64,000 nucleotides of DNA from an uncultured Clostridia bacterium (GTDB taxonomy: Bacteria > Bacillota > Clostridia > TANB77 > CAG-508). The position numbers and the translations under genes are program-made. Positions within the stretch are counted from its first letter, which is position 1; each line of letters opens with the position of its first letter. The notes below the pieces were generated by a model. It was given only the letters and a program-made list of their open reading frames with translations, searched no databases and was not told where the DNA came from. This document shows positions 1 to 39,935 of this stretch, piece by piece. The stretch lies in NCBI GenBank assembly GCA_963556825.1, contig CAUWAM010000006.1:8127-72126 (forward strand). Direction: 5' to 3'.

Positions 1-1
1 G

Positions 2-154
2 AATATTTCTGATGAAAATAAATTAAGTAATTTATCAATAGAAGAACATTATAAGTATTATGAAAATAAAGGTTATGAAAAAAAAGAAATTATTAAATTA
101 ATTGCTAAAGATAGAAATGTAAATAAAAATGAAATTTATAAATTATTTATTTAA
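2..154 (+). CDS. rsmI: 3' end of a CDS entering from the left edge; tail resembles 16S rRNA 2'-O-methyltransferase RsmI (YabC)
   Basis: Open frame from window edge to TAA 152-154 (...EEHYKYYENKGYEKKEIIKLIAKDRNVNKNEIYKLFI*). Convergent with abrB, as yabC-abrB is in Bacillus. Only 50 aa are visible. Confidence 0.45.
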   Translation, partial: NISDENKLSNLSIEEHYKYYENKGYEKKEIIKLIAKDRNVNKNEIYKLFI

Positions 155-158
155 AATA

Positions 159-200
159 AAAAAACAAATAAAAATATTAATTATTATTTTATTTGTTTTT
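159..200. terminator. Bidirectional A/T-rich hairpin between convergent rsmI and abrB
   Basis: aaaaacaaataaaa ... ttttatttgttttt inverted repeat flanked by A/T runs. Confidence 0.5.
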
Positions 201-216
201 TATTTTTTATTTTTAA

Positions 217-477
217 TTATTTTTTTGATTCTTCATGTAAGGAATTAAGTAAATTTGCACATTTATCACACACCAATTTATTTTTATATTCTATTAAATT
301 TTTAGTATTTCCGCAAAAGATGCAATTTGGTTCATATTTTTTTAATACAATACATGGTCCGTCTACATATATTTCGACGGGATCTTTTTCGACAATATTG
401 AATTGATTTCTTATTTCCATTGGTATTACGACTCTTCCCAATTCATCAACTCTTCTTATAATTCCAGTAGATTTCAT
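217..477 (-). CDS. abrB: Transition-state regulator AbrB (SpoVT/AbrB swapped-hairpin domain) with Cys-rich C-terminal tail
   Basis: MKSTGIIRRVDELGRVVIPMEIRNQF... is the canonical AbrB N-terminus. ATG at 477 follows AAGGAGGAAA. The upstream 20 codons of the tracked ORF lack an RBS. The tail carries CIFCG...CDKC. Confidence 0.9.
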   Translation of the reverse strand: MKSTGIIRRVDELGRVVIPMEIRNQFNIVEKDPVEIYVDGPCIVLKKYEPNCIFCGNTKNLIEYKNKLVCDKCANLLNSLHEESKK

Positions 478-589
478 GTTTTTCCTCCTTAATGTTAAGT
501 ATATAATATTTATATCATAAATCATTCTTTCGGTCAATTAAAAGTAATAAAAAAATCATATGATAATAAGATTAATTAAGGTGATATTA

Positions 590-1169
590 ATGTTAAATAT
601 AGTTTGGCCATTTTTTATAATAATATCTATTTTATATGCTATTTGTTTTGGAAATTTAGAAAATTTAAATAATTCTATTTTTGAAAGTACTGCTTCAGCA
701 GTTAATTTGTCTATTACTTTAATCGGTACAATGTGTTTGTGGAGTGGAATTATGAAAATTGCAAGTGAAACATCTTTTGCACAGAAAATAACAAAATTTT
801 TAAGTCCATTAATGAAAATATTGTTTCCCAAAATAAAAAAGACAAGTAAATTATACAAAGAAATTTCCATGAATATGGTAGCAAATATATTGGGACTTGG
901 AAATGCAGCAACACCATTACGGAATTAAAGCGATGAAAACTATGCAGGAAAATAATTCAAATAAAAAAGTTTTAACAGATGAAATGGCTATTTTTATAGT
1001 ATTAAATACAGCATCTATACAATTAATTCCTACAACCGTTATTGCTATAAGGAGTTCTTTAGGATCACAAAATCCAGTAGCAATAATTTTTCCCGTATGG
1101 ATTGCTACAATTTGTGCTGCTATTGCAGGAATAGTTGCCACAAAAATATTTATAAAGATAGGGAAATAA
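590..1169 (+). pseudogene. spmA: Spore maturation protein A, split by a 1-nt insertion near 920
   Basis: ORF 560-928 ends ...GLGNAATPLRN*. ORF 897-1169 continues in the +1 frame with GIKAMKTMQ...; deleting C920 restores the conserved GNAATPLGIKAM. RBS aaggtg lies 6 nt before ATG 590. Confidence 0.8.
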
Positions 1170-1194
1170 AATATTAATTTGGAGAATATAGTAA

Positions 1195-1722
1195 ATGCAA
1201 TTTATTAGTTTTATATCAAATATGGCAATGCCGTTAATAATAATTTTAATTATAATATATGGAATTTTAGAAAGAAAAAAAGTTTTTGATATTTTTTTAG
1301 ATGGAGCAAAGGAAGGGGTAGGAATTGTTTTTAGTATATTTCCTACTTTAGTAGGATTATTTGTTGCAATAGGTTTACTTAGAAGTTCAGGAATAATTGA
1401 TTTGATTGTTAAATTTATAACACCATTATTTGATTTTATAAATTTTCCATCAGAGATACTTCCTCTTGCAATTATAAGACCAATTTCAGGAAGTGCTTCT
1501 ATTGCTGTTGCTACTGATATTATGAAAAATTTTTTCGTTGATAGTAAAATAGGATTAATAGCATCTGTGATTATGGGGTCTACAGAAACCACAGTATATA
1601 CTATTGCTGTTTATACTAGTAGTGTGGGAATAAAGAAAACAAGATTTGTGTTATGGGCTTCTTTAATTGCTGATTTTGTTGGGATTACAACTAGCATTTT
1701 GGTTTGTCAATATTTAATGTAA
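1195..1722 (+). CDS. spmB: Spore maturation protein B
   Basis: 175-aa polytopic nucleoside-recognition-type membrane protein directly after spmA; a typical spmAB pair. Confidence 0.85.
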   Translation: MQFISFISNMAMPLIIILIIIYGILERKKVFDIFLDGAKEGVGIVFSIFPTLVGLFVAIGLLRSSGIIDLIVKFITPLFDFINFPSEILPLAIIRPISGSASIAVATDIMKNFFVDSKIGLIASVIMGSTETTVYTIAVYTSSVGIKKTRFVLWASLIADFVGITTSILVCQYLM

Positions 1723-1730
1723 GTATCAGA

Positions 1731-1748
1731 TGTCAGTTTTTGTCGAAA
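1731..1748 (+). promoter_or_regulatory. 18-bp motif TGTCAGTTTTTGTCGAAA (copy 1) containing a perfect Spo0A box, TGTCGAA
   Basis: Exact duplicate of 7525-7542 in the same orientation. TGTCGAA is preceded, after a 3-bp gap, by the degenerate box TGTCAGT. Confidence 0.6.
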
Positions 1749-1784
1749 GTTTATATTTTAACTCTTTCTTTTTTTCTAATTCAA

Positions 1785-1793
1785 TGTTATAAT
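1785..1793 (+). promoter_or_regulatory. Extended -10 element TGTTATAAT with no ORF behind it
   Basis: TGnTATAAT match about 37 bp downstream of the 18-bp motif. No convincing -35 and no RBS-preceded ORF before the hairpin at 1996. Confidence 0.3.
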
Positions 1794-1995
1794 CTTTTTG
1801 ACACATATTATGATTATACTTCAATATATATATAACATTTTTATCAAAGAAAAATTTAGTATATCATATTATTATTATTGTGGAAGAAGGGAAGGAATAG
1901 GAGACTTAATTATATAAAGAGTGTATTTCCAAAGGTATTGATAGTCACATTTTTTAATTATTTTTTATCAAAATTAGAAAATATTAATAAAAAAT

Positions 1996-2027
1996 AACAA
2001 CCGAGATTTTTTAAAATCTCGATTGTT
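1996..2027 (-). terminator. Rho-independent terminator of the 2032-3831 minus-strand genes
   Basis: aacaaccgagatttt / aaaatctcgattgtt stem (one G:U pair) followed by a T-run on the minus strand. Confidence 0.7.
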
Positions 2028-2031
2028 ACAA

Positions 2032-2625
2032 CTATTTTAGAATTTCATCAACTTTAACACTTAATTCACTATCATTTTTTATTTCTATACTATGACTTTC
2101 TAAGAAATCTTTTAATAAAGAAACTTCTTCATCAGAAAGATTTTCTTTTTCTATTTCTATAATTTTTATTACTAAGTTGTATAATCTTTTTTGATTTTCT
2201 GTTAATGGTGTATTTTTTATATCTACTACTTTAGTTGAATTTTGTTCATTTTCTAAATTATTAGTTATTTCATCAAATTCGCTTGCATAATATTTTTTTA
2301 TAACATTAGCAGTATCATCAAGCTTTTTGCTAATTTCTTTAGCTTGTTCAGTATCAGCAATTTCATCCTCGTTATTTTCTGACATTGTAGACATTGTTTG
2401 AGGTATATCTATTGATGTTCCTGCTTTGTTTTGGTGTTCTTGAGCAAACTTTTCTTTTTCAGATAAAAGTCGTTCTCCTTCTTTTTTATTAGCTTCTGCT
2501 ATACTAGCATCATCCATAATAGGAATATTTAATATTGCTTTAGCAACTAATAAAGATAAAGGAATTATTAATAATACTGCTAAAAATATTATTAGAGCGA
2601 CAATTTTTTTATTTTTAATTTTCAT
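2032..2625 (-). CDS. Membrane-anchored acidic helical protein, function unknown
   Basis: N-terminal TM segment (IVALIIFLAVLLIIPLSLLVA), then an E/D/K-rich soluble part. AAGGAGGAAT RBS. Starts 34 nt after the ricin/amidase gene on the same strand. Confidence 0.7.
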   Translation of the reverse strand: MKIKNKKIVALIIFLAVLLIIPLSLLVAKAILNIPIMDDASIAEANKKEGERLLSEKEKFAQEHQNKAGTSIDIPQTMSTMSENNEDEIADTEQAKEISKKLDDTANVIKKYYASEFDEITNNLENEQNSTKVVDIKNTPLTENQKRLYNLVIKIIEIEKENLSDEEVSLLKDFLESHSIEIKNDSELSVKVDEILK

Positions 2626-2658
2626 ATAAGATTCCTCCTTATATATAATAATTATACA

Positions 2659-3831
2659 CTATATCATTTTTAAAAACAAGAAGTATTCATTAGGATTAGC
2701 TCTACATATATCTAATAAACTTTTTGATAATGTATCAGAAGAATGATAAGTAAGCAAATAAGTATTATTAGTACCATCATTTAAGTAACCAGTAACATAC
2801 ATTGTATGATGTGGGTCTGCAGCAGAACCAAATTTGGATTCAGCCATTTGGATAATACAACCTTGAGAAATTGGTAAATTCCAAGCTAAAGATGGATTAT
2901 TAACTATATCAGAACCTTTGGCTTGATAAATATTAGAAATTCTTGCTCCCCAGTAGTTTTTGAAATTTGGTGCACTTAACCATGGACCAGGTACAGAAGT
3001 ATCCCAACTATATTTTAATTGGTCATTTTTATTTATATCAGTATTATATTTATCATTTTTTCTGTAAATTTGCCAATCATTTTGATAGTGAAATCCAGAG
3101 GCTAATAAACATTGAGAAGCAAAATTTGTACAGTCAGCTGAGCATCTTGGGTATGCAGAAACTGTTTGATTGTAATTGTCTACTGCATATTTTGCACCAA
3201 GGTCAACATCAATAGAAACAGGTTCTAAAATCCATAAATCGTTCCAAGATTTATTATAATCATGTTGTATAACATTTCCTTCATCTGAACAACTTCTGTT
3301 TTCAACTACTAGGCATCTTTCGTAATTACTAATTTTTGAAGCTATTTTATAAACAGAATTATCTGTATAGTATATTTTGAATTTTTCGGAATCTCCTCCA
3401 TGGTTTGTCCAAAGATTAATATTAGCATAGTTACCTGAATTAGCACCGTATACATCTAAAGCAAAATTAGTATTAATTTGTGATAAAAATGTAAAAGTAC
3501 CATCACCATTGTAATTAATATACCATTTTTGATTATTACCACCATTGAATGAACATTGTTGTACATTAGCACCATCAGAAGCATTTCCACGATACACATC
3601 CAAATATCTTCCTGAATAAGCATTTTTTATATAAAAAGTTTTATTCATTATATGTTGAACTATGTTTCCTGGTGAATTTCTAGAAATACTATTTTGAGTA
3701 GAAGTTGAAGATAAATCTTTGGAAATATCATAATCTGCTTTGGATTGTACAGGTAAAAAAACAAAAGAAGTAAGTGCAAATATGGTAGTAAAGACTATGA
3801 TTAAATTTTTTGCTTTTGAAAATTTTTTCAT
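2659..3831 (-). CDS. Secreted ricin-B-lectin plus Amidase_6-type (Cys/His, papain-like fold) putative cell-wall amidase
   Basis: Signal peptide MKKFSKAKNLIIVFTTIFALTSFVFLPVQSKA. Three beta-trefoil subrepeats end in QKW / EKF / DLW. The C-terminal part carries SADCTNFASQCLLASG and DPHHTMYVTGY, the Cys and His motifs of the putative amidase domain family. Confidence 0.75.
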   Translation of the reverse strand: MKKFSKAKNLIIVFTTIFALTSFVFLPVQSKADYDISKDLSSTSTQNSISRNSPGNIVQHIMNKTFYIKNAYSGRYLDVYRGNASDGANVQQCSFNGGNNQKWYINYNGDGTFTFLSQINTNFALDVYGANSGNYANINLWTNHGGDSEKFKIYYTDNSVYKIASKISNYERCLVVENRSCSDEGNVIQHDYNKSWNDLWILEPVSIDVDLGAKYAVDNYNQTVSAYPRCSADCTNFASQCLLASGFHYQNDWQIYRKNDKYNTDINKNDQLKYSWDTSVPGPWLSAPNFKNYWGARISNIYQAKGSDIVNNPSLAWNLPISQGCIIQMAESKFGSAADPHHTMYVTGYLNDGTNNTYLLTYHSSDTLSKSLLDICRANPNEYFLFLKMI

Positions 3832-4106
3832 ATATAAAACCCCCTTTTAATTATTTTATAGAGATACCAAGATGGCTATAAACAAAAATTCACCTCCTTT
3901 ATTTAAACTACAATATTGCAAAATAAATTCTACAAATATATTGTTTTTTAGAAAGTGAATGTTTACTATTTGCAAAGTTCAATTTGCATATATTTTTTAA
4001 TTATATATATCATAAAAAAATAAAAATGTATAAAAAGATAAAAAAAGATAAAATATGCAACTATTTTATATAAATATATCATCTTATAAATGATAAGGAG
4101 GGGGTT

Positions 4107-4829
4107 ATGGTAAATATATTAGTAGTAGATGATAATTTTAGTTATTCTAAATGTTTAATAAATAAATTAGTATCAGATAATGTCAATATAAGAATATCGT
4201 ATATAGCTACCAACGGATGTGAAGCATTAAATAAAATAAAAGAACCTAATAATGATATAGATGTAATATTATTAGATTTGGTTTTACCTCAGATTAGTGG
4301 TTTTGAAATTTTAAAATATATAGAGGAAAATAATATTACTAAATATAAAGGTTCTGTAATAGTTTTATCTGGAGAAGTTAATAATTTCCCTAAGAATAGT
4401 TGGGTTCATTCAAGTATATCCAAAATAAGAGGATTTAATTTTGTAATAAATGAAATTGAGGATTTAATAAAAACAAAAGAGTATTGCAAACTTCCAATAG
4501 AAAAAAAAGTAAAAAATGAATTAGAAAAATTAAATTATAATTTTAAATACGTAGGAACTACATATTTATTAGAAACAATAATATTATTGTACAACCAAGA
4601 AACAAATAACAGAATTAAACTTGAAAAAAATATATATCCTATAATTGCAAAAAAATATAATACCACTGTACATAATATAAAAATAAATATAATAAATTCA
4701 ACTAAAGAGATGTATTTTGACTGTGCAGAATCAACGTTATTTAAAACTTTAAAATTGGTTCAGGGGGAAAAGCCAAAACCCAAAGATGTAATCTCATCAA
4801 TAATTGCAAAATTAAAAAATTTTGAATAA
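4107..4829 (+). CDS. Orphan response regulator with a Spo0A-type C-terminal DNA-binding domain (divergent Spo0A paralogue)
   Basis: Receiver domain with VVDDN and ILLDLVLP acceptor-Asp motifs. The C-terminal [10 protein letters not shown]...[26 protein letters not shown] aligns to Spo0A YLREAI...[28 protein letters not shown], but the recognition-helix residues differ. AAGGAGGGGG RBS. Confidence 0.75.
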   Translation: [240 protein letters not shown]

Positions 4830-4832
4830 TAA

Positions 4833-4860
4833 AAAGAGTTCTCTATCAACAGAACTCTTT
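4833..4860. terminator. Hairpin between convergent genes 4107-4829 and 4900-5409
   Basis: aaagagttct / agaactcttt 10-bp stem with an 8-nt loop. Confidence 0.6.
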
Positions 4861-4899
4861 AGAATTAGGAAGATAAATGTTAATTTGGGTAAGAAATTA

Positions 4900-5409
4900 T
4901 TAATTACCTACATAAATCTCATATTTTACCCAAGCGCTTCTATAAAATCCTGGTGGATTACTAATACTACTTGCATCAACAAAAACCTGTATTCTACGAC
5001 CTGGATAAACATTAGCAAATCCTCCTATAAAGCTAGTTGATGTAGTCCCGTCATTATGCAAATCCTTGATTACTGTGCTAGACAAAATTTCGCCAGTATC
5101 ATAATCTCTTAGCTGAATAGTTAACTGAATCTGACTATTTGAAGAATCAGCTCGTCTAAACTCTCCAGTAAGAAAAATGTAACTTCCAGAATCAACTACT
5201 TTATATGGAGTTAGATTATTATTGTTGAATGTATATTCAGATGCATAGGTCTTTCCAGCTTGCCAATGAGTAGTTGCTCGAGCTTCAACAGAATTTTCAG
5301 CTACGAGCGGATTTTCTTGTGCAAACACATCAAAACTTGATAATGATAAAATCATTATTGTGGTTAATAACAAACTAAGAACTTTTTTTATATTTACTGC
5401 TTTTTTCAT
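4900..5409 (-). CDS. Small secreted protein, function unknown (last gene of the ECF sigma operon)
   Basis: Internal ATG at 5409 gives MKKAVNIKKVLSLLLTTIMILSLSSFDVFAQE (signal peptide) preceded by GGGAGA. The mature part reads as beta-rich by composition. The upstream 31 codons of the tracked ORF have no RBS. Confidence 0.65.
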   Translation of the reverse strand: MKKAVNIKKVLSLLLTTIMILSLSSFDVFAQENPLVAENSVEARATTHWQAGKTYASEYTFNNNNLTPYKVVDSGSYIFLTGEFRRADSSNSQIQLTIQLRDYDTGEILSSTVIKDLHNDGTTSTSFIGGFANVYPGRRIQVFVDASSISNPPGFYRSAWVKYEIYVGN

Positions 5410-5515
5410 AATATGTCTCCCTTCGTTTGAAATCTTCCTAATTCTCATGTAGAACACGATAATATTTTTACATACTCTTTCTAATTTTTCAAGAAAAGAC
5501 AAAAAAAGACAAAAT

Positions 5516-6742
5516 TTATTCTTTTTCTAATTCAATTTTAATATCTTTTTCTAGATATTTAAAATGTAAAATTAAATTGTCAGTAGCATCTTTTTTTGTT
5601 AAATCTATAGTTTGAAAAAAGTTAAAATCTCCATTGGAAGAATATATATAATTAGTGTCAGTATCATTACTTGATGTAGCATAAAACTTATCATTGTTTT
5701 CGTTAATAATATAGATATCTGAAAATGGATTTTTGTGTGAATATTTTTCAAATAAATCTTTTAAATCTTTTTGATTGTTTATTTTCATATTTAATTCATC
5801 AATTTTATTTTGTTTCGTTTCAAAATCATCATCGATATTTATATAAGATTTTATGAAATTTATCATATCTGATGTGTTATTATTTTCAATTTTTGTAAAT
5901 AATTCTAATTTTGTTCCAGTATCAGTAACTTGTAATTTTTTTAATTCAATGTCACTATTATTAGATTTTATACTATAAGAAATAATTTCACGATTATAAA
6001 ATTGTTCAGGAACATCTAAAACAAAACTCCATTCTCCATTTGTACTTTCATTTTCTATATTATTAAAGATAATTTTTTTAATATTAATATATAGATATTT
6101 ACTTTTTGGATAATTAAGTGATGTAAAATTATAAATGCATTCAAAAGAATTTGACTTCTTGCTTTTGATATAACTATTTACACCACTATTAGAAAATGAG
6201 TTGTTGAATTTTTCAGAGTTGAATTCTATTCCATTATTGTTACAAAAGGCTTGTATCAGTTTAATATTATCACTATAAATAATATTATTATTTTCATCTG
6301 TTATAATAAAATCTTTTAAGCTAATATTTTTAACTTTTCCTAAACTTTTATTAGTAGTTGAAGTTATATAGAATGTAAAATCCAAGTTGTTATCATCCAT
6401 CAAAAAATTCTCAATACTTATTTTTATGTTATTGGATTCAGCAATAGCATTTTTTGGATTTTCTAAATACCCATTTTGAATGGCTGTATCAATTCCAGTA
6501 TTAAAATTAAAAAAGTTATGTACAAATTGAGATATATCTTTTGCAAAGACAACACCTCCAGTTATTGTAAAAAGACCAGTTAAAATTATTATTATTTTTT
6601 TTAATACTAATGATAGAGTTGGTTTATTTTTTTTATTTTTTAGCGCAGAATCTATTCCTTCAGATATAATAGTAGGTATTTTTTGATTATTTTTAAAATA
6701 ATCAAATAGAAAATTATCAATTTTATCATAATTATTATACAT
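5516..6742 (-). CDS. Putative single-pass anti-sigma factor
   Basis: Start overlaps the sigma gene stop by 8 nt. About 60 aa cytoplasmic N-terminus, one TM (IIIILTGLFTITGGVVFA), large N/K/I-rich extracytoplasmic domain. No HxxxCxxC zinc motif. The role is inferred from architecture and position only. Confidence 0.5.
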   Translation of the reverse strand: MYNNYDKIDNFLFDYFKNNQKIPTIISEGIDSALKNKKNKPTLSLVLKKIIIILTGLFTITGGVVFAKDISQFVHNFFNFNTGIDTAIQNGYLENPKNAIAESNNIKISIENFLMDDNNLDFTFYITSTTNKSLGKVKNISLKDFIITDENNNIIYSDNIKLIQAFCNNNGIEFNSEKFNNSFSNSGVNSYIKSKKSNSFECIYNFTSLNYPKSKYLYINIKKIIFNNIENESTNGEWSFVLDVPEQFYNREIISYSIKSNNSDIELKKLQVTDTGTKLELFTKIENNNTSDMINFIKSYINIDDDFETKQNKIDELNMKINNQKDLKDLFEKYSHKNPFSDIYIINENNDKFYATSSNDTDTNYIYSSNGDFNFFQTIDLTKKDATDNLILHFKYLEKDIKIELEKE

Positions 6743-7268
6743 TTAAAATTCCTCCTTCAAATTCTTTTCTTATTTTTTCTTTTGCTCTTGCAATTTTACT
6801 TTTTACAGTATTAATGTTCATATTTAAAATTTTTGAAATTTCACTACATGAATAATTACTGTTATAGAATAATGTAATTATTAATTTTTCGTCTGTAGAT
6901 AGACTATATAATAATTTTTCAAAGTCTAATTTCGAGTCAATATAATGAATAGAATCTTCATTATATTCCATAGAATTACTTTTGTAGATTTTATTGATTA
7001 GAGAATTTTTTTTGCTTTTCTTTCTATAAATTTGATTACATTCATTTATAAGTATTTTTATAATCCAAGATTTAAAAGTATCGATATTTTTTAGTTTATT
7101 TAACTTTTTGTATGATTTTATAATGGTTTCTTGAATTGCATCATTTATATCATCTAAATCACTCAACTTACTTCTAGCAATTCTATATAAATCATTTTGT
7201 ATTAGTTTAATTAATTCAGTATAAGCTTCTTTATCTCCATTTTGGGAACGAAATATTAATTCTTTCAT
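6735..7268 (-). CDS. ECF-type RNA polymerase sigma-70 family factor
   Basis: Region 2 (DAIQETIIKSYKKLNKL...FKSWIIKILINECNQIYRK) and region 4 HTH (YSCSEISKILNMNINTVKSKIARAKEKIRKE); 177 aa. Confidence 0.85.
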   Translation of the reverse strand: MKELIFRSQNGDKEAYTELIKLIQNDLYRIARSKLSDLDDINDAIQETIIKSYKKLNKLKNIDTFKSWIIKILINECNQIYRKKSKKNSLINKIYKSNSMEYNEDSIHYIDSKLDFEKLLYSLSTDEKLIITLFYNSNYSCSEISKILNMNINTVKSKIARAKEKIRKEFEGGILNV

Positions 7269-7524
7269 CTTTTTTCTCCTTTCATACTAATAAGATGATA
7301 ATTTCTTATATTTTGGGTGCATAACATAGAAAATTATAACAAAAAGTTATATATAAATTTCTGATTGTTTTTTTACATATTATAGATTATTTTTTTCTAT
7401 TCTTCTATTATATAAAATTGCGAAAATTTATTTAAATAATAATATAATAAAGTTGTAGTTTTTTTCGATATAATAGTAAATAAGATTATAAAAATAAAAA
7501 AGAAACTACTTTTTAATTTATGCT

Positions 7525-7542
7525 TGTCAGTTTTTGTCGAAA
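7525..7542 (+). promoter_or_regulatory. 18-bp motif TGTCAGTTTTTGTCGAAA (copy 2), 8 bp upstream of a consensus -35
   Basis: Exact duplicate of 1731-1748. The perfect 0A box TGTCGAA sits at 7535-7541. Confidence 0.6.
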
Positions 7543-7550
7543 TTTTCTTG

Positions 7551-7579
7551 TTGACAAATTAAAAATTACGTTGTAAAAT
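7551..7579 (+). promoter_or_regulatory. SigA-type promoter (TTGACA, 17-bp spacer, TAAAAT)
   Basis: TTGACA 7551-7556; TAAAAT 7574-7579. Confidence 0.6.
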
Positions 7580-7624
7580 TATAACACAAATTTGGACAAA
7601 TTATTTTTTACATTAGGAGGTTTT

Positions 7625-7720
7625 ATGATTTTTAAAATCGTATTATTTTTTTCAATTTTTTTTATTGTCAAAAAAATAATTGCTAAAGTATTAGCAATTA
7701 TAATCTTAAAAAATCAATAA
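7625..7720 (+). CDS. 31-aa hydrophobic/basic peptide (MIFKIVLFFSIFFIVKKIIAKVLAIIILKNQ), below the ORF-track cutoff
   Basis: AGGAGG lies 5 nt before the ATG, about 45 nt downstream of the promoter at 7551-7579. One predicted TM helix with a Lys-rich centre. Confidence 0.45.
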   Translation: MIFKIVLFFSIFFIVKKIIAKVLAIIILKNQ

Positions 7721-7885
7721 TTAAAATTTTATAAAAATTGTTTTTAATCTTGTAGGGAAAATATGATCCCCCCATTTTTATTGTAATATAGATTAAGATT
7801 TTTTGTTATATTGTTATCACGTCCCACATTTAAATCAAAATCATTTTAAATCAATAACATATTTTCTCTACAATACATTTATATA

Positions 7886-8365
7886 TTATTTATGATATGT
7901 TTCTCCATTTATTATTTTAAAAGCTCTAAAAATTTGCTCTAATAAAAATACACGTATTAATTGATGGGGAAATGTCATTTTTGAAAAACATATTTTTTGA
8001 TTAGATAAATTTAAAAGCTTTTCATTAATTCCAAGTGAGCCACCAATAATAAAAGTAATATTACTATGTTGCATAGATATGTCTTGAATATCTTGTGCAA
8101 ATTCCTCAGAAGAAAATTGTTTGCCTTTTAGGTCAAGACATATTACATATGTATCTTTTTTTAGATGATTTATTACATTTTCACTTTCTATGTTTTTGAT
8201 TTCGTTTTCTATAGTTAAATTAGATTTATCTGGAATTTTTTTATCCGGTAATTCTAAAATATTTAATTTACAAAATTTAGAAAGTCGTTTTGAATATTCA
8301 TCTATAGCATCCTTTAAATATTTTTCTTTTATTTTTCCTGTACATATTATATTTATTGTTATCAT
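7886..8365 (-). CDS. rlmH: 23S rRNA (pseudouridine1915-N3)-methyltransferase RlmH
   Basis: 159-aa SPOUT protein (MITINIICTGKIKEKYLKDAIDEYSKRL...IIGGSLG...MTFPHQLIRVFLLEQIFRAF). Confidence 0.9.
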   Translation of the reverse strand: MITINIICTGKIKEKYLKDAIDEYSKRLSKFCKLNILELPDKKIPDKSNLTIENEIKNIESENVINHLKKDTYVICLDLKGKQFSSEEFAQDIQDISMQHSNITFIIGGSLGINEKLLNLSNQKICFSKMTFPHQLIRVFLLEQIFRAFKIINGETYHK

Positions 8366-8403
8366 TTTTATTTACCTTTAATATATTTAAGTTTTATAAA
8401 AAC

Positions 8404-9192
8404 TTATAAACTTATTTTGTTTCCTGGTATGTCACGACTTGCTACACTTAATTTTAGTGAGTTTTCATTATATTGCGTACACATTATCTCGTCTACTACT
8501 GTTTTATACGCTAGTTCTGGAAAGTTGCTTTGTTTACTTAAATGTCCTAAAATAGCTTGTTGTAAACCAGAATGAAGAAGATGAGAAATTGTTTTTCCTG
8601 CGGATTCGTTTGATAAATGCCCTACTGGACCTGCAATTCTTGTTTTTAGTTGATATGGATATTTTGAATATTTTAGTACTTCAGGATCATAATTAGACTC
8701 TAACATGATAAAAATACTATCTTCTAAATTTTTTAATACACCATTTGTCATATGTCCAATATCTGTTGCGATACTTATTTTTTTATTATCTTTAAAAATA
8801 TTAAAACCACAAGGATTTGCAGCATCATGTGGAATTGAAAAAGGCTTAACATTGAAGTCGCCTATTTCAAAGTTTTCATCAATATTAAATAAATTTATAT
8901 TTTTTTCTAATATTTTTTCTTTTTGTTTTGGCATAGCATCTAATGTCTTTTGATTTACAAAGACTGGTAAATTGAATTTTTTTGCAAAAGTACCAAGTCC
9001 TTGTACATGATCTGAATGTTCATGTGTTACTAATATTCCATTTATAGAAGATGGATCAATTTCTAAATTTGTTAAAGCTTCTTCAATTTTTTTACTACTA
9101 ACACCGGCGTCAATTAAAAGTTTTGTGTTTTCTGATTCTATAAATAGACTATTACCACTACTGCCACTATATAAACTACAAAAATTAAACAT
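8404..9192 (-). CDS. MBL-fold metallo-hydrolase, YycJ/WalJ-like
   Basis: HEHSDH motif, 262 aa, directly upstream of rlmH as in Bacillus. Confidence 0.8.
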   Translation of the reverse strand: MFNFCSLYSGSSGNSLFIESENTKLLIDAGVSSKKIEEALTNLEIDPSSINGILVTHEHSDHVQGLGTFAKKFNLPVFVNQKTLDAMPKQKEKILEKNINLFNIDENFEIGDFNVKPFSIPHDAANPCGFNIFKDNKKISIATDIGHMTNGVLKNLEDSIFIMLESNYDPEVLKYSKYPYQLKTRIAGPVGHLSNESAGKTISHLLHSGLQQAILGHLSKQSNFPELAYKTVVDEIMCTQYNENSLKLSVASRDIPGNKISL

Positions 9193-9211
9193 GTTTGATT
9201 TCTTCCTTTGA

Positions 9212-10471
9212 TTATTCTTCTACTCTTTCAATATTTGCACCTATTTTTCTAAATTTTTCTTCTATTTTTTCGTAACCTCTATCAATATGAGAAAGGTTAT
9301 ATACTTCTGTTGTTCCAGTTGCAGAAACACCAGCTATAATTAAAGCTGCTCCCGCTCTTAAGTCTGTTGAATAAACAGGTGCACCAAATAATTCATCTAC
9401 TCCTTCAAATATTGCAGATTTTCCTTGTGCTGTTATTTTGGCTCCCATATTATTTAATTCTGCTGTGTATTGAAATCTAGATTCCCAAATGCTTTCATTT
9501 ATAATACTTGTACCATTAGCAGTTGCTAGAACAACTCCCATTTGTGGTTGTAAGTCTGTAGGAAATCCAGGATATGGTAATGTTTTTATATTTGTTTTAT
9601 TTGGTCTTTTACTATACCAAACTCTTATACTATCACCATAATCTTCAACATTTCCACCAATTTCTAATATTTTAGCAGTTAAGGCTTCTAAATGTTTTGT
9701 TATACAATTTTTTATTAATAAATCACCTTTTGAAGCTATTGCGGCAAGCATAAATGTTCCAGCTTCTATTTGGTCAGGTACAACTGAATATGTAGCGTTT
9801 CCATGCAATTTTTCTACACCAGTAATTTTTATAACATCTGTACCTGCTCCTCTAATGTCTGCTCCCATTGTATTTAAAAAGTTTGCAACATCAACTACAT
9901 GAGGTTCTTTTGCAGCATTATCTATTGTTGTTACACCTTTTGCTAAAACAGCTGAAAGCATAATATTAATTGTTGCTCCAACAGAAACAATATCCATATA
10001 TATAGAATTACCAGTAAGTTTATCTGCTTTTGCATGAATTGTTCCTTTTTCTACTGTTACATTAGCTCCTAATAATTCAAATCCTTTTATATGTTGGTCA
10101 ATAGGTCTTGCTCCTAAATTACAACCACCAGGCATTCCTACTTCTATTTCACCCATTCTTCCAAGCATTGCACCAATAACATAATAAGATGCTCTAAATT
10201 TACTTGTTAAATCTAGAGGTGCTTGAGTAGTATTAATATCTCTTGTATCTATTGTTATTTCATTTGGAGTATTCCATGTTATTTTTGCTCCTAATTTTTC
10301 TAATATTGTGCAACAAATTTGAACATCACTTATATTTGGTAAGTTATTAATTGTACAAACTCCATCTATAAGTAATGTTGCTGGTAATAGTGCTATTGCT
10401 GCATTTTTTGCTCCATTTATTTCAACTACACCTTTTAAAGGTGTAGGTCCTGTTATTACTAATTTTTCCAA
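9212..10471 (-). CDS. murA: UDP-N-acetylglucosamine 1-carboxyvinyltransferase
   Basis: INGAKNAAIALLPATLL and the active-site loop GGCNLGARPIDQHIKG; 419 aa. Confidence 0.95.
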   Translation of the reverse strand: MEKLVITGPTPLKGVVEINGAKNAAIALLPATLLIDGVCTINNLPNISDVQICCTILEKLGAKITWNTPNEITIDTRDINTTQAPLDLTSKFRASYYVIGAMLGRMGEIEVGMPGGCNLGARPIDQHIKGFELLGANVTVEKGTIHAKADKLTGNSIYMDIVSVGATINIMLSAVLAKGVTTIDNAAKEPHVVDVANFLNTMGADIRGAGTDVIKITGVEKLHGNATYSVVPDQIEAGTFMLAAIASKGDLLIKNCITKHLEALTAKILEIGGNVEDYGDSIRVWYSKRPNKTNIKTLPYPGFPTDLQPQMGVVLATANGTSIINESIWESRFQYTAELNNMGAKITAQGKSAIFEGVDELFGAPVYSTDLRAGAALIIAGVSATGTTEVYNLSHIDRGYEKIEEKFRKIGANIERVEE

Positions 10472-34136: not shown

Positions 34137-36101
34137 ATGAAATTTTTGAAAATAAATAAATTAAAAATAAATTCATATGGAAAATTAAAAGAAAAAGAAA
34201 TAAATTTAGAAAATGGAATAAATTTAATATATGGAGAAAATGAAGCAGGAAAATCAACATTAATAAAATTTATTATTAATTCTTTTTATGGAATTTCTAA
34301 AAATAAAAAAGGAAAAGAATTTTCAGATTATGAAAAATATAAACCTTGGAATGGAGAAGAATTTTCTGGAAAAATTGATTATGAATTAGATAATAATGGA
34401 AAATATCAAATATTTAGAGATTTTAATAAAAAAAATCCAAAAATATTTAATGAAAAAATGGAAGAGATTTCAAAAGAATTTAATATTGATAAAAATAAAG
34501 GAAATGAATTTTTTTACGAACAAACAAAAATAGATGAAGATTTATTTTTATCGACACTAGCTATTAATCAAAAAGAAATAAAATTAGAAAAACAAACTCA
34601 AAATATATTAATACAAAAAATTGCTAATTTAGTTGGTACAGGAGATGATAATATTTCATACAAAAGAGCGATAGACAGAATAAATAGAAGACAATTAGAT
34701 GAAATTGGAAGTGATAGGTCTAGAGAAAAGCCAATTAATTTAATTAACAGAAAAATAGAAGAGTTAGAAAATGAAAAACAAAAATTAGAAAAATATAAAG
34801 AATATAAATATGATTTCGAAGATGAAGAAAATAATTTAAATGAAGAAATTTTAAATTTAGAAAATGAAAATAAATTTTTAGTAGAAATAAAATTATTAAA
34901 TGAAAATCAAAAAATAGAAAAAGAAAAAATAAATATAAAAGAAAATATAAAAAAGGAAAATTTAGAAAAAATAAATGAAATAAAAAATAAAATAAATGAA
35001 ATAAAAAATGATAATAAAAATATTTATGAAAAATACTCAGAAAAAAAGGAAATAAAAAATAAAAGAAAAAATAAATTAAATAAAAAAATAATATTAAATT
35101 TAATAATATTAAGTTTGATTAATTTTTTACAATTTAAAATAATAAAAAATAAAATATTTAATTATATTTTTCTTCTTACAGTACCAATTGATTTAATTAT
35201 TTCATTATTTTTAATAAATAATAAAAATAAAAAAATAAAAAATAAAGAAAAAATAGAAAAAAAATTTTTTGAAAAAATAAATCAAGAAATAAATAATTTA
35301 AAAAATGAAATAAATATATTAGAAAATAATAATGATAAATTAGAAAATGAAATAAATAAATTAAAAAATAATTTTAATTTAAAAATTAATTTGGAAAAAG
35401 AAAAAATAAAAAATAAATATTTAAATAAAATACAAAAAAATAAAATAAATAATTATTTAGATTTAATTGAATTAGAAAAAATAAATTTTGAAATAGAAAA
35501 TATAAAAAATAAAATAAATAATTTAAAATTAAAATTACATTCATTAGATTTAGATAAAAAAAATATAGAACCCAAATTAGATGATTTATCAAAAATAGAA
35601 GAAGAATTAAGTTGCAATAATGAACAAAAGTTAAGTTTGCAAAAATTAAATTTAAGTATTATGCTTGCAAAACAAATTTTAGAAAAATCTTATGATGAAA
35701 TGAAAAACTCAGTAACTCCTAAGTTTACAGAGAATTTATCTAATAACATTTCTAAAATTACAAATGGAAAATATAACAAAGTTAAGTTTAATGAAGAAAC
35801 TGGACTAGTTGTAGAATTAGAAAATGGAGATAATGTATTAGCAGAGAAATTAAGTGTAGGAACAATAGACCAATTATATTTGTCATTAAGACTTTCAATG
35901 GTAGATGAATTATCTGAAGAAAAAGTTCCGATTTTATTAGACGAAGCTTTTGCATTTTATGATAATTCAAGATTAGAAAATATTTTAAAATATTTAAATA
36001 ACAATTATAAAAATAGACAAATAATTATTTTTACTTGTACAGATAGAGAAAAAGATATATTAAATAAAAATAATATAATATTTAATTATATACAATTATA
36101 A
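34137..36101 (+). CDS. SbcC/Rad50-like AAA ATPase (YhaN-like) with a hydrophobic hairpin inside the coiled coil
   Basis: Walker A GENEAGKST, long K/N/E/I coiled coil, signature-like LSVGTIDQLYLSLRL, Walker B PILLDEAF. Two hydrophobic stretches are encoded around 35087-35222. Confidence 0.8.
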   Translation: MKFLKINKLKINSYGKLKEKEINLENGINLIYGENEAGKSTLIKFIINSFYGISKNKKGKEFSDYEKYKPWNGEEFSGKIDYELDNNGKYQIFRDFNKKNPKIFNEKMEEISKEFNIDKNKGNEFFYEQTKIDEDLFLSTLAINQKEIKLEKQTQNILIQKIANLVGTGDDNISYKRAIDRINRRQLDEIGSDRSREKPINLINRKIEELENEKQKLEKYKEYKYDFEDEENNLNEEILNLENENKFLVEIKLLNENQKIEKEKINIKENIKKENLEKINEIKNKINEIKNDNKNIYEKYSEKKEIKNKRKNKLNKKIILNLIILSLINFLQFKIIKNKIFNYIFLLTVPIDLIISLFLINNKNKKIKNKEKIEKKFFEKINQEINNLKNEINILENNNDKLENEINKLKNNFNLKINLEKEKIKNKYLNKIQKNKINNYLDLIELEKINFEIENIKNKINNLKLKLHSLDLDKKNIEPKLDDLSKIEEELSCNNEQKLSLQKLNLSIMLAKQILEKSYDEMKNSVTPKFTENLSNNISKITNGKYNKVKFNEETGLVVELENGDNVLAEKLSVGTIDQLYLSLRLSMVDELSEEKVPILLDEAFAFYDNSRLENILKYLNNNYKNRQIIIFTCTDREKDILNKNNIIFNYIQL

Positions 36102-36124
36102 ATTTGTTAAATAATACTAATTAC

Positions 36125-36153
36125 TTGAAAAAAACGAAAAAAAATAGTATAAT
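36125..36153 (+). promoter_or_regulatory. SigA-type promoter (TTGAAA, 17-bp spacer, TATAAT)
   Basis: TTGAAA 36125-36130; TATAAT 36148-36153. Confidence 0.6.
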
Positions 36154-36184
36154 ACATAAAGTTTAAAAGTAAAGGAGAATATTT

Positions 36185-37246
36185 ATGTTTGAAAAATTAG
36201 AAGCAGTAGAAAAAAGATATGAAGAATTAACAAAAATGATTAGTGACCCAGAAGTAATATCTAATCAATCAGAATGGCAAAAATTAATGAAGGAACATGC
36301 AAGCATAGAAGATATAGTATTAAAATTTAGAGAATATAAAAAAGCAAAAGAAGCTATGGAAGAAGCAAAAGAAATGATGGAAGATAAAGAACTAAAGGAA
36401 CTAGCAGAGGTTGAATATTATGATAATAAAGAAAAATTACCCAAGCTAGAAGAAGAACTAAAATTTCTTTTAATTCCTAAAGATCCAGATGATGATAAAA
36501 ACATTATTTGTGAAATAAGAGCAGGAGCTGGTGGAGAAGAAGCAGCATTATTTGCAGGAACATTATTTAGAATGTACACAATGTATTCAGAAAGAAAACA
36601 TTGGAAAATAGAAGTGTTAAATGAAAATGAAACAGGACTTGGTGGTTATAAAGAAATTACATTTATGATTACAGGTAAAGGTGTTTATAGTAGATTAAAA
36701 TTTGAAAGTGGTGTACATAGAGTACAAAGAGTTCCAGATACAGAAAGTAGTGGAAGAATACATACATCAACAGCAACTGTAGCAGTACTTCCTGTTGTTG
36801 AAGATGTTGAGATAGAAATAAATCCAGCAGATATAAAAATGGAAGTTTTCCGTGCCTCAGGTGCAGGAGGACAACATATTAATAAAACATCCTCAGCTGT
36901 AAGACTTATACATGAACCAACTGGAATTGTTGTTGAATGTCAAACTGAAAGATCTCAATTCCAAAATAAAGATAATGCGATGAGAATGCTTAGAACTAAA
37001 TTATATGAAATAGAAAAACAAAAACAAGATAGTGAAGTTGCTAATGCAAGAAAATCTCAAGTAGGTTCAGGAGATAGAAGTGAAAAAATAAGAACATATA
37101 ATTACCCTCAAGGAAGAATAACAGACCATAGAATTGGAATGAGTATTTATCAAATGGAAAATTTCCTAAATGGAGATATTGATGAAATGATAGACAATTT
37201 AATTGCAGCAGATAGAGCTGAAAGATTAAAGGGTGAAGAAGAATAA
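36185..37246 (+). CDS. prfA: Peptide chain release factor 1
   Basis: [24 protein letters not shown] (PxT region) and [16 protein letters not shown] (GGQ); 353 aa. Confidence 0.95.
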
Positions 37247-37277
37247 GATGTGTACTAAAATACACATCTTTTTTTAT
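37245..37277 (+). terminator. Rho-independent terminator
   Basis: aagatgtgta / tacacatctt stem followed by a T-run. Confidence 0.85.
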
Positions 37278-37349
37278 AATAAAAATAAAGTAATAAAATA
37301 AGAAAACAAAAATAAACTAGTATAAAAAGTAAAAAAGGAGATTTTGAAA

Positions 37350-38093
37350 ATGAGCGAAATCTTAAAAACAACATTACTAGGTTTGTTTTTTGGAACATTT
37401 GGAACAACAATAGGTGGAATATTAGGAATAATAATAAAGAAAAATTCAAACAAATTTTTAAGTTTTATTTTATCATTTGCATCAGGACTGATGATGGCTA
37501 TTATATGTTTTGATTTAATACCAGAAGCTTTAGGAATTAGTAATATTTATGGAGTCATTTTTGGAGTATTAATAGGAATAATTTCAATGATTTTTTGCGA
37601 TATTATAGTTCAAAGAAATTTTAATCTAAAAGAAAAAAAGTATAAGGCAAGTAATGATTTATTAAAAACAGGAATAATTGTTTCAATAGGATTAGCAATA
37701 CATAATTTCCCAGAAGGATTAGCAATAGGTTCTGGTTTTGAAGCATCTTTAAAATTAGGATTAAGTTTAGCAATTGCGATATGTTTGCATGATATACCAG
37801 AAGGAATATCAATGTCAGTACCTATGAAAAATGGAGGAATGTCAAAAATAAAAGTTATTTTTTATGTAATATTATCTGGAATAACAACAGGATTAGGTGC
37901 ATTTTTTGGAGCAATTGTTGGTTCAATATCAGAAAATGTAATAGCTATTTGCCTAAGCTTTGCAGCTGGTGCAATGTTATATATTGTGTCAGGAGAATTA
38001 ATACCAGAATCAAATAAGCTATATAAAGGTAGAATGTCTGCTATTGGAAATATGATTGGATTTATTATTGGTATTTTTGCCACTCAATTATAA
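37350..38093 (+). CDS. zupT: ZIP-family divalent metal (zinc) transporter, ZupT-like
   Basis: HNFPEGLAIG and HDIPEGISM motifs; 8 TM. ATG 37350 lies 9 nt after AAGGAG. Confidence 0.85.
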   Translation: MSEILKTTLLGLFFGTFGTTIGGILGIIIKKNSNKFLSFILSFASGLMMAIICFDLIPEALGISNIYGVIFGVLIGIISMIFCDIIVQRNFNLKEKKYKASNDLLKTGIIVSIGLAIHNFPEGLAIGSGFEASLKLGLSLAIAICLHDIPEGISMSVPMKNGGMSKIKVIFYVILSGITTGLGAFFGAIVGSISENVIAICLSFAAGAMLYIVSGELIPESNKLYKGRMSAIGNMIGFIIGIFATQL

Positions 38094-38110
38094 AAAAATA
38101 AAAGTTTTGT

Positions 38111-38147
38111 TGTAAATTAACAAAACTTTATTTTTTTATATAATAGA
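38111..38147. terminator. Bidirectional terminator (zupT / 38117-39838)
   Basis: aaagttttgtt / aacaaaacttt stem with T-runs on both sides. Overlaps the last codons of the minus-strand gene. Confidence 0.7.
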
Positions 38148-39838: not shown

Positions 39839-39935
39839 ATTTATCTCCTTATTTTTGGCTATATTATATAGTATAACTAAAAAAAATGCAAATTTTACTC
39901 ATGCGAAAAAATGTTTGTGAAAATTAAAAAATCTA

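Follow-up and report, generated by a model that had tools for sequence, protein, structure and literature searches.

The gene at positions 4107 to 4829 (forward strand) of a 64,000-nucleotide stretch of contig CAUWAM010000006.1, from an uncultured Clostridia bacterium (assembly GCA_963556825.1), raises the question of what a protein built like Spo0A, sporulation's master regulator, does away from the usual spo0A context. The whole 64,000-nucleotide stretch is referred to here as the window. The start codon is an ATG, a ribosome-binding site (AGGAGG) lies 6 nt upstream of it, and the gene encodes a response regulator of 240 aa. A first interpretation of the locus, made by a model from the letters alone (the sequence-only reading), took it for an orphan Spo0A paralogue of a unique architecture, placed in an accessory block and possibly acting as a phosphorelay decoy or on a private regulon; of this interpretation, the paralogue, the accessory block and the private regulon have stood up to the present analysis, while the unique architecture, the orphan status and the decoy were not supported. 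The answer that we favour, with chances somewhat better than even, is that the regulator is a transcription factor with a private regulon, coupled to a sigma factor of the extracytoplasmic function (ECF) class in a mobile four-part cassette, and not a regulator of sporulation. Judged from their sequences, its four parts would be the regulator itself, the ECF sigma factor with an anti-sigma factor set in the membrane, and a secreted protein of small size. Its carriers appear to be integrative conjugative elements (ICEs) of uncultured, very low-GC gut Clostridia, and the copy in the window seems to survive on a 5.8-kb island stripped of the conjugation backbone.

Fold and recognition helix of the regulator

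The regulator consists of a receiver (residues 1–125; Pfam Response_reg, PF00072, 42.6 bits over residues 4–93) followed by a Spo0A_C domain (residues 135–234; PF08769, 34.5 bits, model positions 1–102 of 104), which is the domain order given in the definition of Spo0A orthologues. The Spo0A_C score lies above the gathering cutoff of 25 bits, and the profile support for the fold did not fail. End to end, the protein is 25% identical to canonical Spo0A (BLASTP), and both of the Spo0A alignments quoted in the sequence-only reading were reproduced by HMMER against 1FC3/1LQ1 and by BLASTP. A profile of the C-terminal domain (C-domain) built from 19 relatives matches in the PDB only the C-domain of Spo0A (1LQ1/1FC3), with E = 4e-10 and over the full length. 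The full-length model of the regulator returned in Foldseek receiver-domain matches only, and the C-domain (residues 126–240) was for this reason modelled alone with AlphaFold2, giving six helices at a pLDDT of 88.5. In Foldseek against the PDB this model again matched only 1LQ1/1FC3 (TM 0.79–0.87, rmsd 2.0–2.3 Å), and no other fold was returned with E < 1. As far as computation allows, the C-domain is established as a true Spo0A_C fold, and the divergent paralogue with this fold that had been proposed is supported by the Pfam score, the PDB profile and the model alike.

The difference from Spo0A is concentrated in the recognition helix (about residues 188–199), where the canonical SRVERAIRH has become HNIKINIIN. 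In the numbering of B. subtilis the substitutions are R211 to N, E213 to K, R214 to I and R217 to I, which bears out the claim that near-invariant DNA-contacting residues had been replaced. Canonical proteins within the same alignment retain the helix motif, and the regulator is devoid of the near-invariant helix that reads the 0A box. The altered helix belongs to a large family. A word-indexed search returned about 26 related clusters, with identities of 33–98% and nearly all from gut metagenome assemblies, and a profile search run exhaustively over 1.84 billion representatives returned 349 clusters (at 50% identity) with E ≤ 1e-30. Canonical Spo0As reach on the family profile only E values of 1e-17 to 1e-23, and the family is therefore cleanly separate from them. 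The helices of 152 representatives of full length give N(64%)/T-I-K(85%)-x-N(71%)/D-I(95%)-x-x-A-T; this N-I-K-x-N-I-x-x-A-T pattern is a new conserved motif and not the product of decay. In the regulator itself, the ratio of nonsynonymous to synonymous substitution rates (dN/dS), calculated against a copy of the gene in a conjugative element, is 0.10.

The sequence-only reading also regarded the architecture as specific to the master regulator. This part is contradicted by the Spo0A paralogues, the PF08769 genes of mobile elements and the phage homologues that are on record, and the presence of Spo0A_C outside the master regulator is not new. The literature searched yielded no account of the family itself, its altered helix, the coupling to an ECF sigma/anti-sigma pair or the tandem boxes.

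Sigma factor linkage, common promoters and tandem boxes

The genes adjoining the regulator were surveyed in 31 loci, namely the window, one copy in a conjugative element and 29 loci from species-representative genomes, in which open reading frames (ORFs) were called and the proteins clustered. The genome loci belong to uncultured Clostridia from the guts of goats, rabbits, humans and further hosts; they are among the matches listed, the best of which is 52% identical, so that the species of the window is not represented in them. An ECF sigma gene adjoins the family regulator in 26 of the 29 genome loci, in at least four gene orders, and the two canonical spo0A loci in the survey have no such neighbour. 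For example, sigma, anti-sigma and regulator genes may be co-directional, with gaps of 0–43 nt; the regulator may come first, followed by sigma and anti-sigma; or it may be convergent, as it is in the window, with an operon of sigma, anti-sigma and secreted-protein genes, an arrangement that had been correctly recognised from the sequence. In the surveyed loci sigma is always adjoined by a single-pass membrane protein, and most loci encode a small signal-peptide protein of 150–190 aa, with sequences that are unrelated between clusters. A linkage kept through rearrangement, and at protein identities of 30–50%, argues for a functional unit. The regulator is not, for this reason, the orphan that it was first taken for, since the convergent ECF sigma/anti-sigma pair is its conserved partner.

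In the window, the sigma factor gene occupies positions 6735–7268 (reverse strand) and encodes 177 aa with Sigma70_r2 and Sigma70_r4_2 domains (TIGR02937, 78.2 bits against a cutoff of 42.9), and has, as a member of the ECF superfamily should, regions 2 and 4 only. Its gene is overlapped by 8 nt by the downstream gene of a single-pass membrane protein of 408 aa (5516–6742, reverse strand), the putative anti-sigma factor, whose match to DUF4179 (25.4 bits) is under the cutoff of 30.1; among its counterparts elsewhere, one cluster has zf-HC2 (33.6 bits, over the cutoff) and another PepSY. The third gene (4900–5409, reverse strand) is the probable output gene; its small secreted product, 169 aa long, has a signal peptide and belongs to no known family.

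The regulator gene and the sigma operon are preceded by predicted ECF-type promoters of the same form: TGCAAC-N19-ATCTTA at 4056–4086 (forward strand) for the regulator, and TGCACC-N19-ATCTTA at 7291–7321 (reverse strand) for the operon. Eleven loci have the general motif, TG[CT]A[AC]C-N17-20-TCT[AT]A, upstream of sigma, and eight have it upstream of the regulator, where it lies 10–44 nt from the start codon; with the sigma start codons included, the range is 4–94 nt. Of the 40 matches in 512 kb, 19 are of these two kinds. An autoregulatory promoter with an AAC-type -35 element, characteristic of ECF sigma operons, is thus present before the sigma operon as a predicted motif.

Besides these promoters there is a second conserved element. 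Tandem box 1, GATAAAAAAAGATAAAA (GATAAAA-AAA-GATAAAA; 4037–4053, forward strand), is a predicted operator that ends 2 nt upstream of the -35 element of the regulator promoter, and the same 17-mer is found upstream of regulator genes in six other loci (L001, L007, L008, L010, L011, and L022). Tandem box 2, GACAAAAAAAGACAAAA (GACAAAA-AAA-GACAAAA; 5498–5514, forward strand), lies 89 nt upstream of the start of the secreted-protein gene and in the opposite orientation to it, a placement that recurs in L001, L007, L008, and L011. The pattern GAYAAAAAAAGAYAAAA has in 64 kb only these two matches, against 0.01 expected. In 28 non-redundant loci, with one mismatch allowed, 20 matches were counted in the 108 kb of the cassette zones and three in the 362 kb outside them; when only intergenic DNA is considered, the counts are 19 in 19.7 kb and two in 54.6 kb, respectively (binomial p ~1e-9). 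The boxes of the cassettes always precede regulator, sigma or secreted-protein genes, in surrounding DNA that cannot be aligned. Variants with the same 10-bp period (GATAACA, TGTAAAA, AGTAAAA, GTTAAAA, and GGTAAAA) occur in other loci.

The geometry of these boxes is that of Spo0A sites. In the structure 1LQ1, two Spo0A C-domains lie head to tail on a pair of 0A boxes. In protein–DNA recognition, arginine tends toward guanine and asparagine toward adenine, and the replacement of the helix arginines by Asn, Lys or Ile therefore fits the loss of the C-G core and an A/T-type box, GAYAAAA. Binding sites of Spo0A consist of two 0A boxes (TGTCGAA) 3 bp apart (PMC2731898), and the 10-bp period of the tandem boxes is the same as that of paired 0A boxes. 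Conserved tandem boxes and common promoters lie inside the cassette, and the private regulon suggested at the outset fits this evidence.

Taken as a mechanism, an envelope signal would free the ECF sigma factor from its anti-sigma factor, and sigma would then drive both the operon to which it belongs and the regulator gene through the common promoter TGCAMC-N19-ATCTWA. The regulator would in turn bind head-to-tail pairs of 7-bp boxes, 3 bp apart (GAYAAAA-AAA-GAYAAAA), in the geometry that Spo0A adopts on paired 0A boxes. Since box 1 abuts the -35 element of the regulator promoter, autoregulation might be expected, and box 2, ahead of the secreted-protein gene, would be the likely point of output control. 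A contact of the regulator with region 4 of sigma, as that of Spo0A with sigma-A, is possible and speculative. Binding to the boxes, the sign of the regulation and the role of Asp57 phosphorylation are those parts of the scheme that we infer; the linkage of the genes, the promoter motif in common and the distribution of the boxes were observed.

Several observations weigh against this reading. There is no kinase gene among the six genes of the island, as the sequence-only reading had already noted for the adjacent genes, and no kinase-like conserved neighbour across the 29 genome loci. In six further metagenome loci (L045–L050), the informative ones from a scan that otherwise gave mainly response regulators of no relation, the secreted protein follows the regulator in four, and a sigma gene is found within 5 kb in only three; the sigma link is strong but not absolute. 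Clean tandem boxes are present in only about half of the loci. The helix and the box appear to covary, with IIN accompanying GATAAAA and IIK accompanying GATAACA; this follows two clades, is confounded with phylogeny and was not used as evidence. Finally, the boxes are rich in A and phased at 10 bp, and in the regulator promoter they stand where an UP element would; they could instead work through DNA curvature or the alpha subunit of RNA polymerase.

A bolder form of the proposal, which we regard as rather unlikely, is that Spo0A_C has been re-used as a dedicated co-activator of an ECF sigma factor, in a portable two-key (AND-gate) promoter system spread through gut Clostridia by conjugative elements. 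Spo0A contacts sigma-A and sigma-H; similarly, the regulator, sitting on A/T boxes that abut the -35 element, would touch region 4 of the ECF sigma factor. Its receiver may read host phosphorylation, for example by the sporulation kinases, and in that case the secreted payload would be timed to host development.

The sigma linkage and the character of the boxes may also be explained in another way, in which the regulator acts on the ECF sigma factor by protein contact, for instance stabilising it or serving as an anti-anti-sigma factor, and not through sequence-specific binding to DNA, and the boxes are phased A-tracts or UP-like elements. We consider this rather unlikely. The tightness of the linkage would suit it, as would the loss of the canonical DNA-contacting arginines and boxes that are A-rich, phased at 10 bp and, in the regulator promoter, located around -43 to -59; moreover, PorX–SigP provides a precedent (PMC7826278). 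However, the helix-turn-helix fold is retained at high confidence and its N-I-K-x-N-I motif is conserved, and the positions of the boxes that are not A (GAT/GAC) are kept among loci whose regulators are only 40–57% identical. The distance from the box to the -35 element varies from 2 to about 50 nt and both orientations occur, unlike an UP element, and the GATAACA variant breaks the A-tract.

Less probable still is a role as phosphorelay decoy or sporulation modulator, in which the regulator would compete with Spo0A for its kinases, or occupy the DNA targets of Spo0A, and so give the mobile element a means to sense or change the host's choice of sporulation. The active-site quintet of the receiver is complete (D8, D9, D57, S88, and K106), so that the acidic pocket and the acceptor Asp recognised by the sequence-only reading are in place and the protein looks able to be phosphorylated; together with the lack of a dedicated linked kinase and with a host that is a spore former, this speaks in favour of the idea, and phage spo0A homologues have been proposed as manipulators of sporulation (PMC10294663). 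The receiver surfaces tell against it. The docking surfaces alpha1 and beta5-alpha5 are unlike those of Spo0A, differences being found in helix alpha1 (NRELVSLLxxYI in Spo0A), in the T-A-F-G loop and in the K-P-F motif. Surfaces of the alpha1 and beta5-alpha5 type are those that set partner specificity, as established by work on two-component systems. The receivers of the family are also less constrained, with the acceptor Asp in 77% of the 152 representatives, Asn in its place in 16%, and the active-site Lys in 72%; the acceptor is thus missing in about 23%, and some members (P0024, P0025, L027, L029, and L030) have no receiver at all. In addition, the recognition helix would be unable to read TGTCGAA in the canonical manner, the conserved partner is an ECF sigma factor, and no sporulation gene is found among the conserved neighbours. 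The regulator is 23–27 aa shorter than canonical Spo0A (about 30 aa had been claimed), because the interdomain linker is short and alpha4 is truncated, being reduced to a turn.

The island and its origin in a conjugative element

The cassette of the window lies on a strain-variable genomic island of 5,794 bp (1731–7524), a six-gene block for which both empty and occupied contigs exist. It is bounded by two exact copies of an 18-nt direct repeat, TGTCAGTTTTTGTCGAAA, at 1731–1748 and 7525–7542 (both forward strand), which are att-like and spaced 5,794 nt apart; two matches were obtained in none of 100 shuffles. Contigs of four canine-gut runs were compared with window positions 1–9000. Single contigs in X1 and X2 join position 1730 to 7525, sharing the 18 letters, and their flanks show about two mismatches per 1.4 kb (99.8% identity to the window); the regulator therefore lies on an island that is missing from part of the strains of this organism, and it is dispensable, since such empty-site strains exist. 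The occupied form was found in an X4 contig (1618–2661) and in the independent Logan contig L005. The "empty" form could also arise via deletion between the repeats. The canine metagenome data X1, X2, X7, and X9, which hold 85-kb contigs of the host with the empty site, are labelled TRANSCRIPTOMIC; they behave as DNA libraries, or the labels are unreliable.

ICEs are recognised by direct repeats on either side and by related strains with an empty site, and the island shows both. Its content points in the same direction. Window positions 1960–7483 are 97% identical to positions 3852–9375 of the metagenome contig L001, inside a conjugative element, and positions 1814–1897 are the remnant of a DUF5697 gene, 86% identical to L001:3547–3625, within its DUF5697 gene. 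In long metagenome contigs (up to 513 kb) the block is flanked by genes for a TraG/VirD4-type coupling protein, DUF5697, a primase-like protein and PcfJ, and is therefore conjugative-element cargo; in L001–L004, the related block lies between the coupling-protein gene and the primase/PcfJ genes. No integrase or recombinase, relaxase, or type IV secretion or coupling gene is present within 1731–7524, and the island is therefore best described as a remnant. Comparable islands are the cis-mobilisable ICE remnants (CIMEs) related to ICESt1 of Streptococcus thermophilus, which are flanked by att sites and devoid of integrase and transfer genes. Like these, the island has direct repeats, no recombinase or transfer genes, a content derived from a conjugative element and a presence/absence polymorphism; a functional att site and a mobilising element would in its case be putative.

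A plasmid or phage origin of the regulator was considered and left without support, tblastn finding no match among 72,556 plasmids, nor among 50,697 phage records. PHROGs returned for the island proteins generic receiver and sigma matches only, and a known defence system was rejected, PADLOC having no meaningful matches for any island protein.

All six genes are intact in both the window and the conjugative-element copy, and their dN/dS values of 0.10–0.53 suggest purifying selection. Two of them lie to the left of the regulator: one for a membrane-anchored protein of cluster c12 (2032–2625, reverse strand; 197 aa, with an N-terminal anchor, no known domain and a dN/dS of 0.53) and one for a secreted lectin-amidase (2659–3831, reverse strand; 390 aa, RicinB_lectin_2 at 91.5 bits and Amidase_6 at 65.2 bits, dN/dS 0.17). 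The latter gene is divergent from the regulator, with which it is conserved in L001, L010, and L013; its product may be an enzyme carried as cargo and active on the cell wall, and the gene may share the control region holding tandem box 1. Between the convergent regulator and secreted-protein genes there is a hairpin terminator (4833–4860). The small secreted proteins of the other loci (L007, L008, L010, L011, L017, L019–L024, L031, L032, L035, and L046–L050) are about 140 aa long when mature, and in profile comparison the three largest clusters match in the signal peptide only. No relatives of these proteins were found in Pfam, NCBIfam or the PDB, and they may be a fast-evolving payload (adhesin, toxin or signal). 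Two family regulators, at times forming a divergent pair and each with its own sigma/anti-sigma genes, are seen on several contigs, namely those of L008 (8894–10735), of L010 and L018 (one contig, 17 kb apart), of L016 (2323–3045 and 6993–7709) and of L048; the cassette is therefore one that duplicates or accumulates.

The origin of the block invites the alternative that the regulator controls the conjugative element itself (its excision, transfer or entry exclusion) and is a leftover in the window, which we hold to be as improbable as the decoy. The position of the cassette between the coupling-protein and primase/PcfJ genes in L001–L004, and backbone genes nearby in at least nine loci, are in accordance with such a function. 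However, the backbone is gone from the window and the six genes have nevertheless been kept intact, the boxes and promoters all lie within the cassette and none before backbone genes, and many loci have no backbone genes within 10 kb.

There is finally the question of whether the regulator is the Spo0A of its own lineage. Spo0A orthologues are described as core genes, inherited vertically, present in all strains and typically next to spoIVB. This does not apply to the regulator, which is found in an accessory block as the sequence-only reading had it, the 5,794-bp island, with the ECF sigma factor and the lectin-amidase as neighbours. On the NCBIfam equivalog model TIGR02875 it scores 58.3 bits against a cutoff of 200, and from its sequence it is best classed as a diverged paralogue of Spo0A and not as an orthologue. 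The window contains SpoIIE, SpoIIR, YpeB, and SpmA/B genes, and by this gene content the host is a spore former. In tblastn of canonical Spo0As against the 64-kb window, the regulator gene was the sole match. A conserved Spo0A has been reported in every characterised spore former (bioRxiv 10.1101/2022.02.25.481979), and a canonical spo0A is accordingly presumed to lie elsewhere in the genome of the host. The idea of a fast-evolving orthologue, to which the common two-domain architecture and the lack of another spo0A in the window might have lent some credit, is effectively excluded by the empty site, at which conspecific strains have no copy of the gene in otherwise 99.8% identical DNA, and is further opposed by the 97% identity of the block to the conjugative-element copy, the TIGR02875 score, the textbook helix retained by the low-GC relatives P0027–P0029 and the conservation of Spo0A in all characterised spore formers.

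Related systems and other features of the window

The closest known system is Spo0A itself (P06534; PDB 1LQ1 and 1FC3; TIGR02875; PF08769). The regulator shares with it the receiver and Spo0A_C domains, a six-helix C-domain, one conserved C-domain segment of 10 residues, the C-terminal helix KP..-F/I-...KL and a predicted site of two 7-bp direct repeats, 3 bp apart, beside a -35 element. It differs in lacking the conserved sigma-A-activating region, in its short linker and alpha4, in being accessory, mobile and linked to an ECF sigma gene instead of spoIVB, and in its predicted box, GAYAAAA and not TGTCGAA. Additional spo0A-like genes have been reported before. For example, Spo0A paralogues are present in 11 Clostridiales genomes, ten of them with two copies and Anaerostipes hadrus with three (Galperin et al., 2022, bioRxiv 10.1101/2022.02.25.481979), and PF08769 is enriched on mobile elements of gut Firmicutes (Jiang et al., 2019, PMC6907783). 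These are likewise extra Spo0A_C genes of gut Clostridia, often on mobile elements; the reports count genes, however, and describe no subfamily, altered helix, ECF partnership or cis-element. Another example is that of human-gut phages, which carry receiver-less spo0A homologues (Schwartz et al., 2023, PMC10294663). Here too Spo0A_C travels on mobile elements, and the present family also has receiver-less members, although the regulator of the window has a complete receiver and its carrier is a conjugative element. Systems that join a response regulator to an ECF sigma factor include PorX–SigP (ECF228), PhyR–NepR–EcfG (ECF15) and the ECF39 and ECF246 groups, which have two-component systems linked to them (Casas-Pastor et al., 2021, PMC7826278). 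In these, as in the cassette, the genes of a response regulator and of an ECF sigma/anti-sigma pair are coupled, but the output domain of the cassette is Spo0A_C and no kinase is linked; Spo0A is not mentioned in the main text of that ECF classification.

These results bear on the use of Spo0A_C, which is said to "uniquely distinguishes Spo0A" (PMC6136694) and is commonly taken as a single marker for the sporulation master regulator. The present family, which keeps this fold with another helix over about 350 clusters, travels on mobile elements and is tied to ECF sigma factors, can inflate spo0A counts and mislead predictions of sporulation from metagenomes. The family is also a natural experiment on changes in the specificity of a deeply conserved DNA-binding domain, G/C-reading arginines having given way to Asn or Lys together with an all-A/T box. 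The cassette, in turn, may be a previously undescribed merging of an ECF sigma factor and a response regulator on one promoter.

Other features of the window and of the loci surveyed are of minor importance for the regulator. The 18-nt repeat of the island holds a perfect 0A box (TGTCGAA); a meaning for it was discarded, the three perfect boxes found in 64 kb against 1.5 expected not being significant. Immediately to the right of the island there is a near-consensus sigma-A promoter (TTGACA-17-TAAAAT, 7551–7579), followed by a ribosome-binding site and an ORF of 31 hydrophobic residues, MIFKIVLFFSIFFIVKKIIAKVLAIIILKNQ (7625–7720); the island may have inserted at a promoter that Spo0A controls and that serves a small membrane peptide. 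An AbrB-type transition-state regulator with the MazE_antitoxin/SpoVT-AbrB fold is encoded at 217–477 (reverse strand), with a perfect 0A box in its coding region (388–394). In another low-GC organism (L043 and L044, 6001–6759), a canonical-type Spo0A with an intact helix (P0029) is encoded between tpiA and gpmI, within the gap-pgk-tpi glycolytic cluster and not beside spoIVB, which is unusual. The region from about 30100 to 39840 of the window looks like the remnant of a second, different mobile element, with a TraG/VirD4-type coupling protein (31411–32937), an AAA_27 protein (34137–36101), several ORFs of no family and a GC content of 16% at 34–36 kb. Finally, two adjacent genes (52348–57213 and 57232–61305), located just upstream of spoIIE (61530–63968), encode giant proteins of 1,621 and 1,357 aa with DUF11, SdrD_B, and SpaA-type domains, which are probably surface adhesins or pilus-like proteins.

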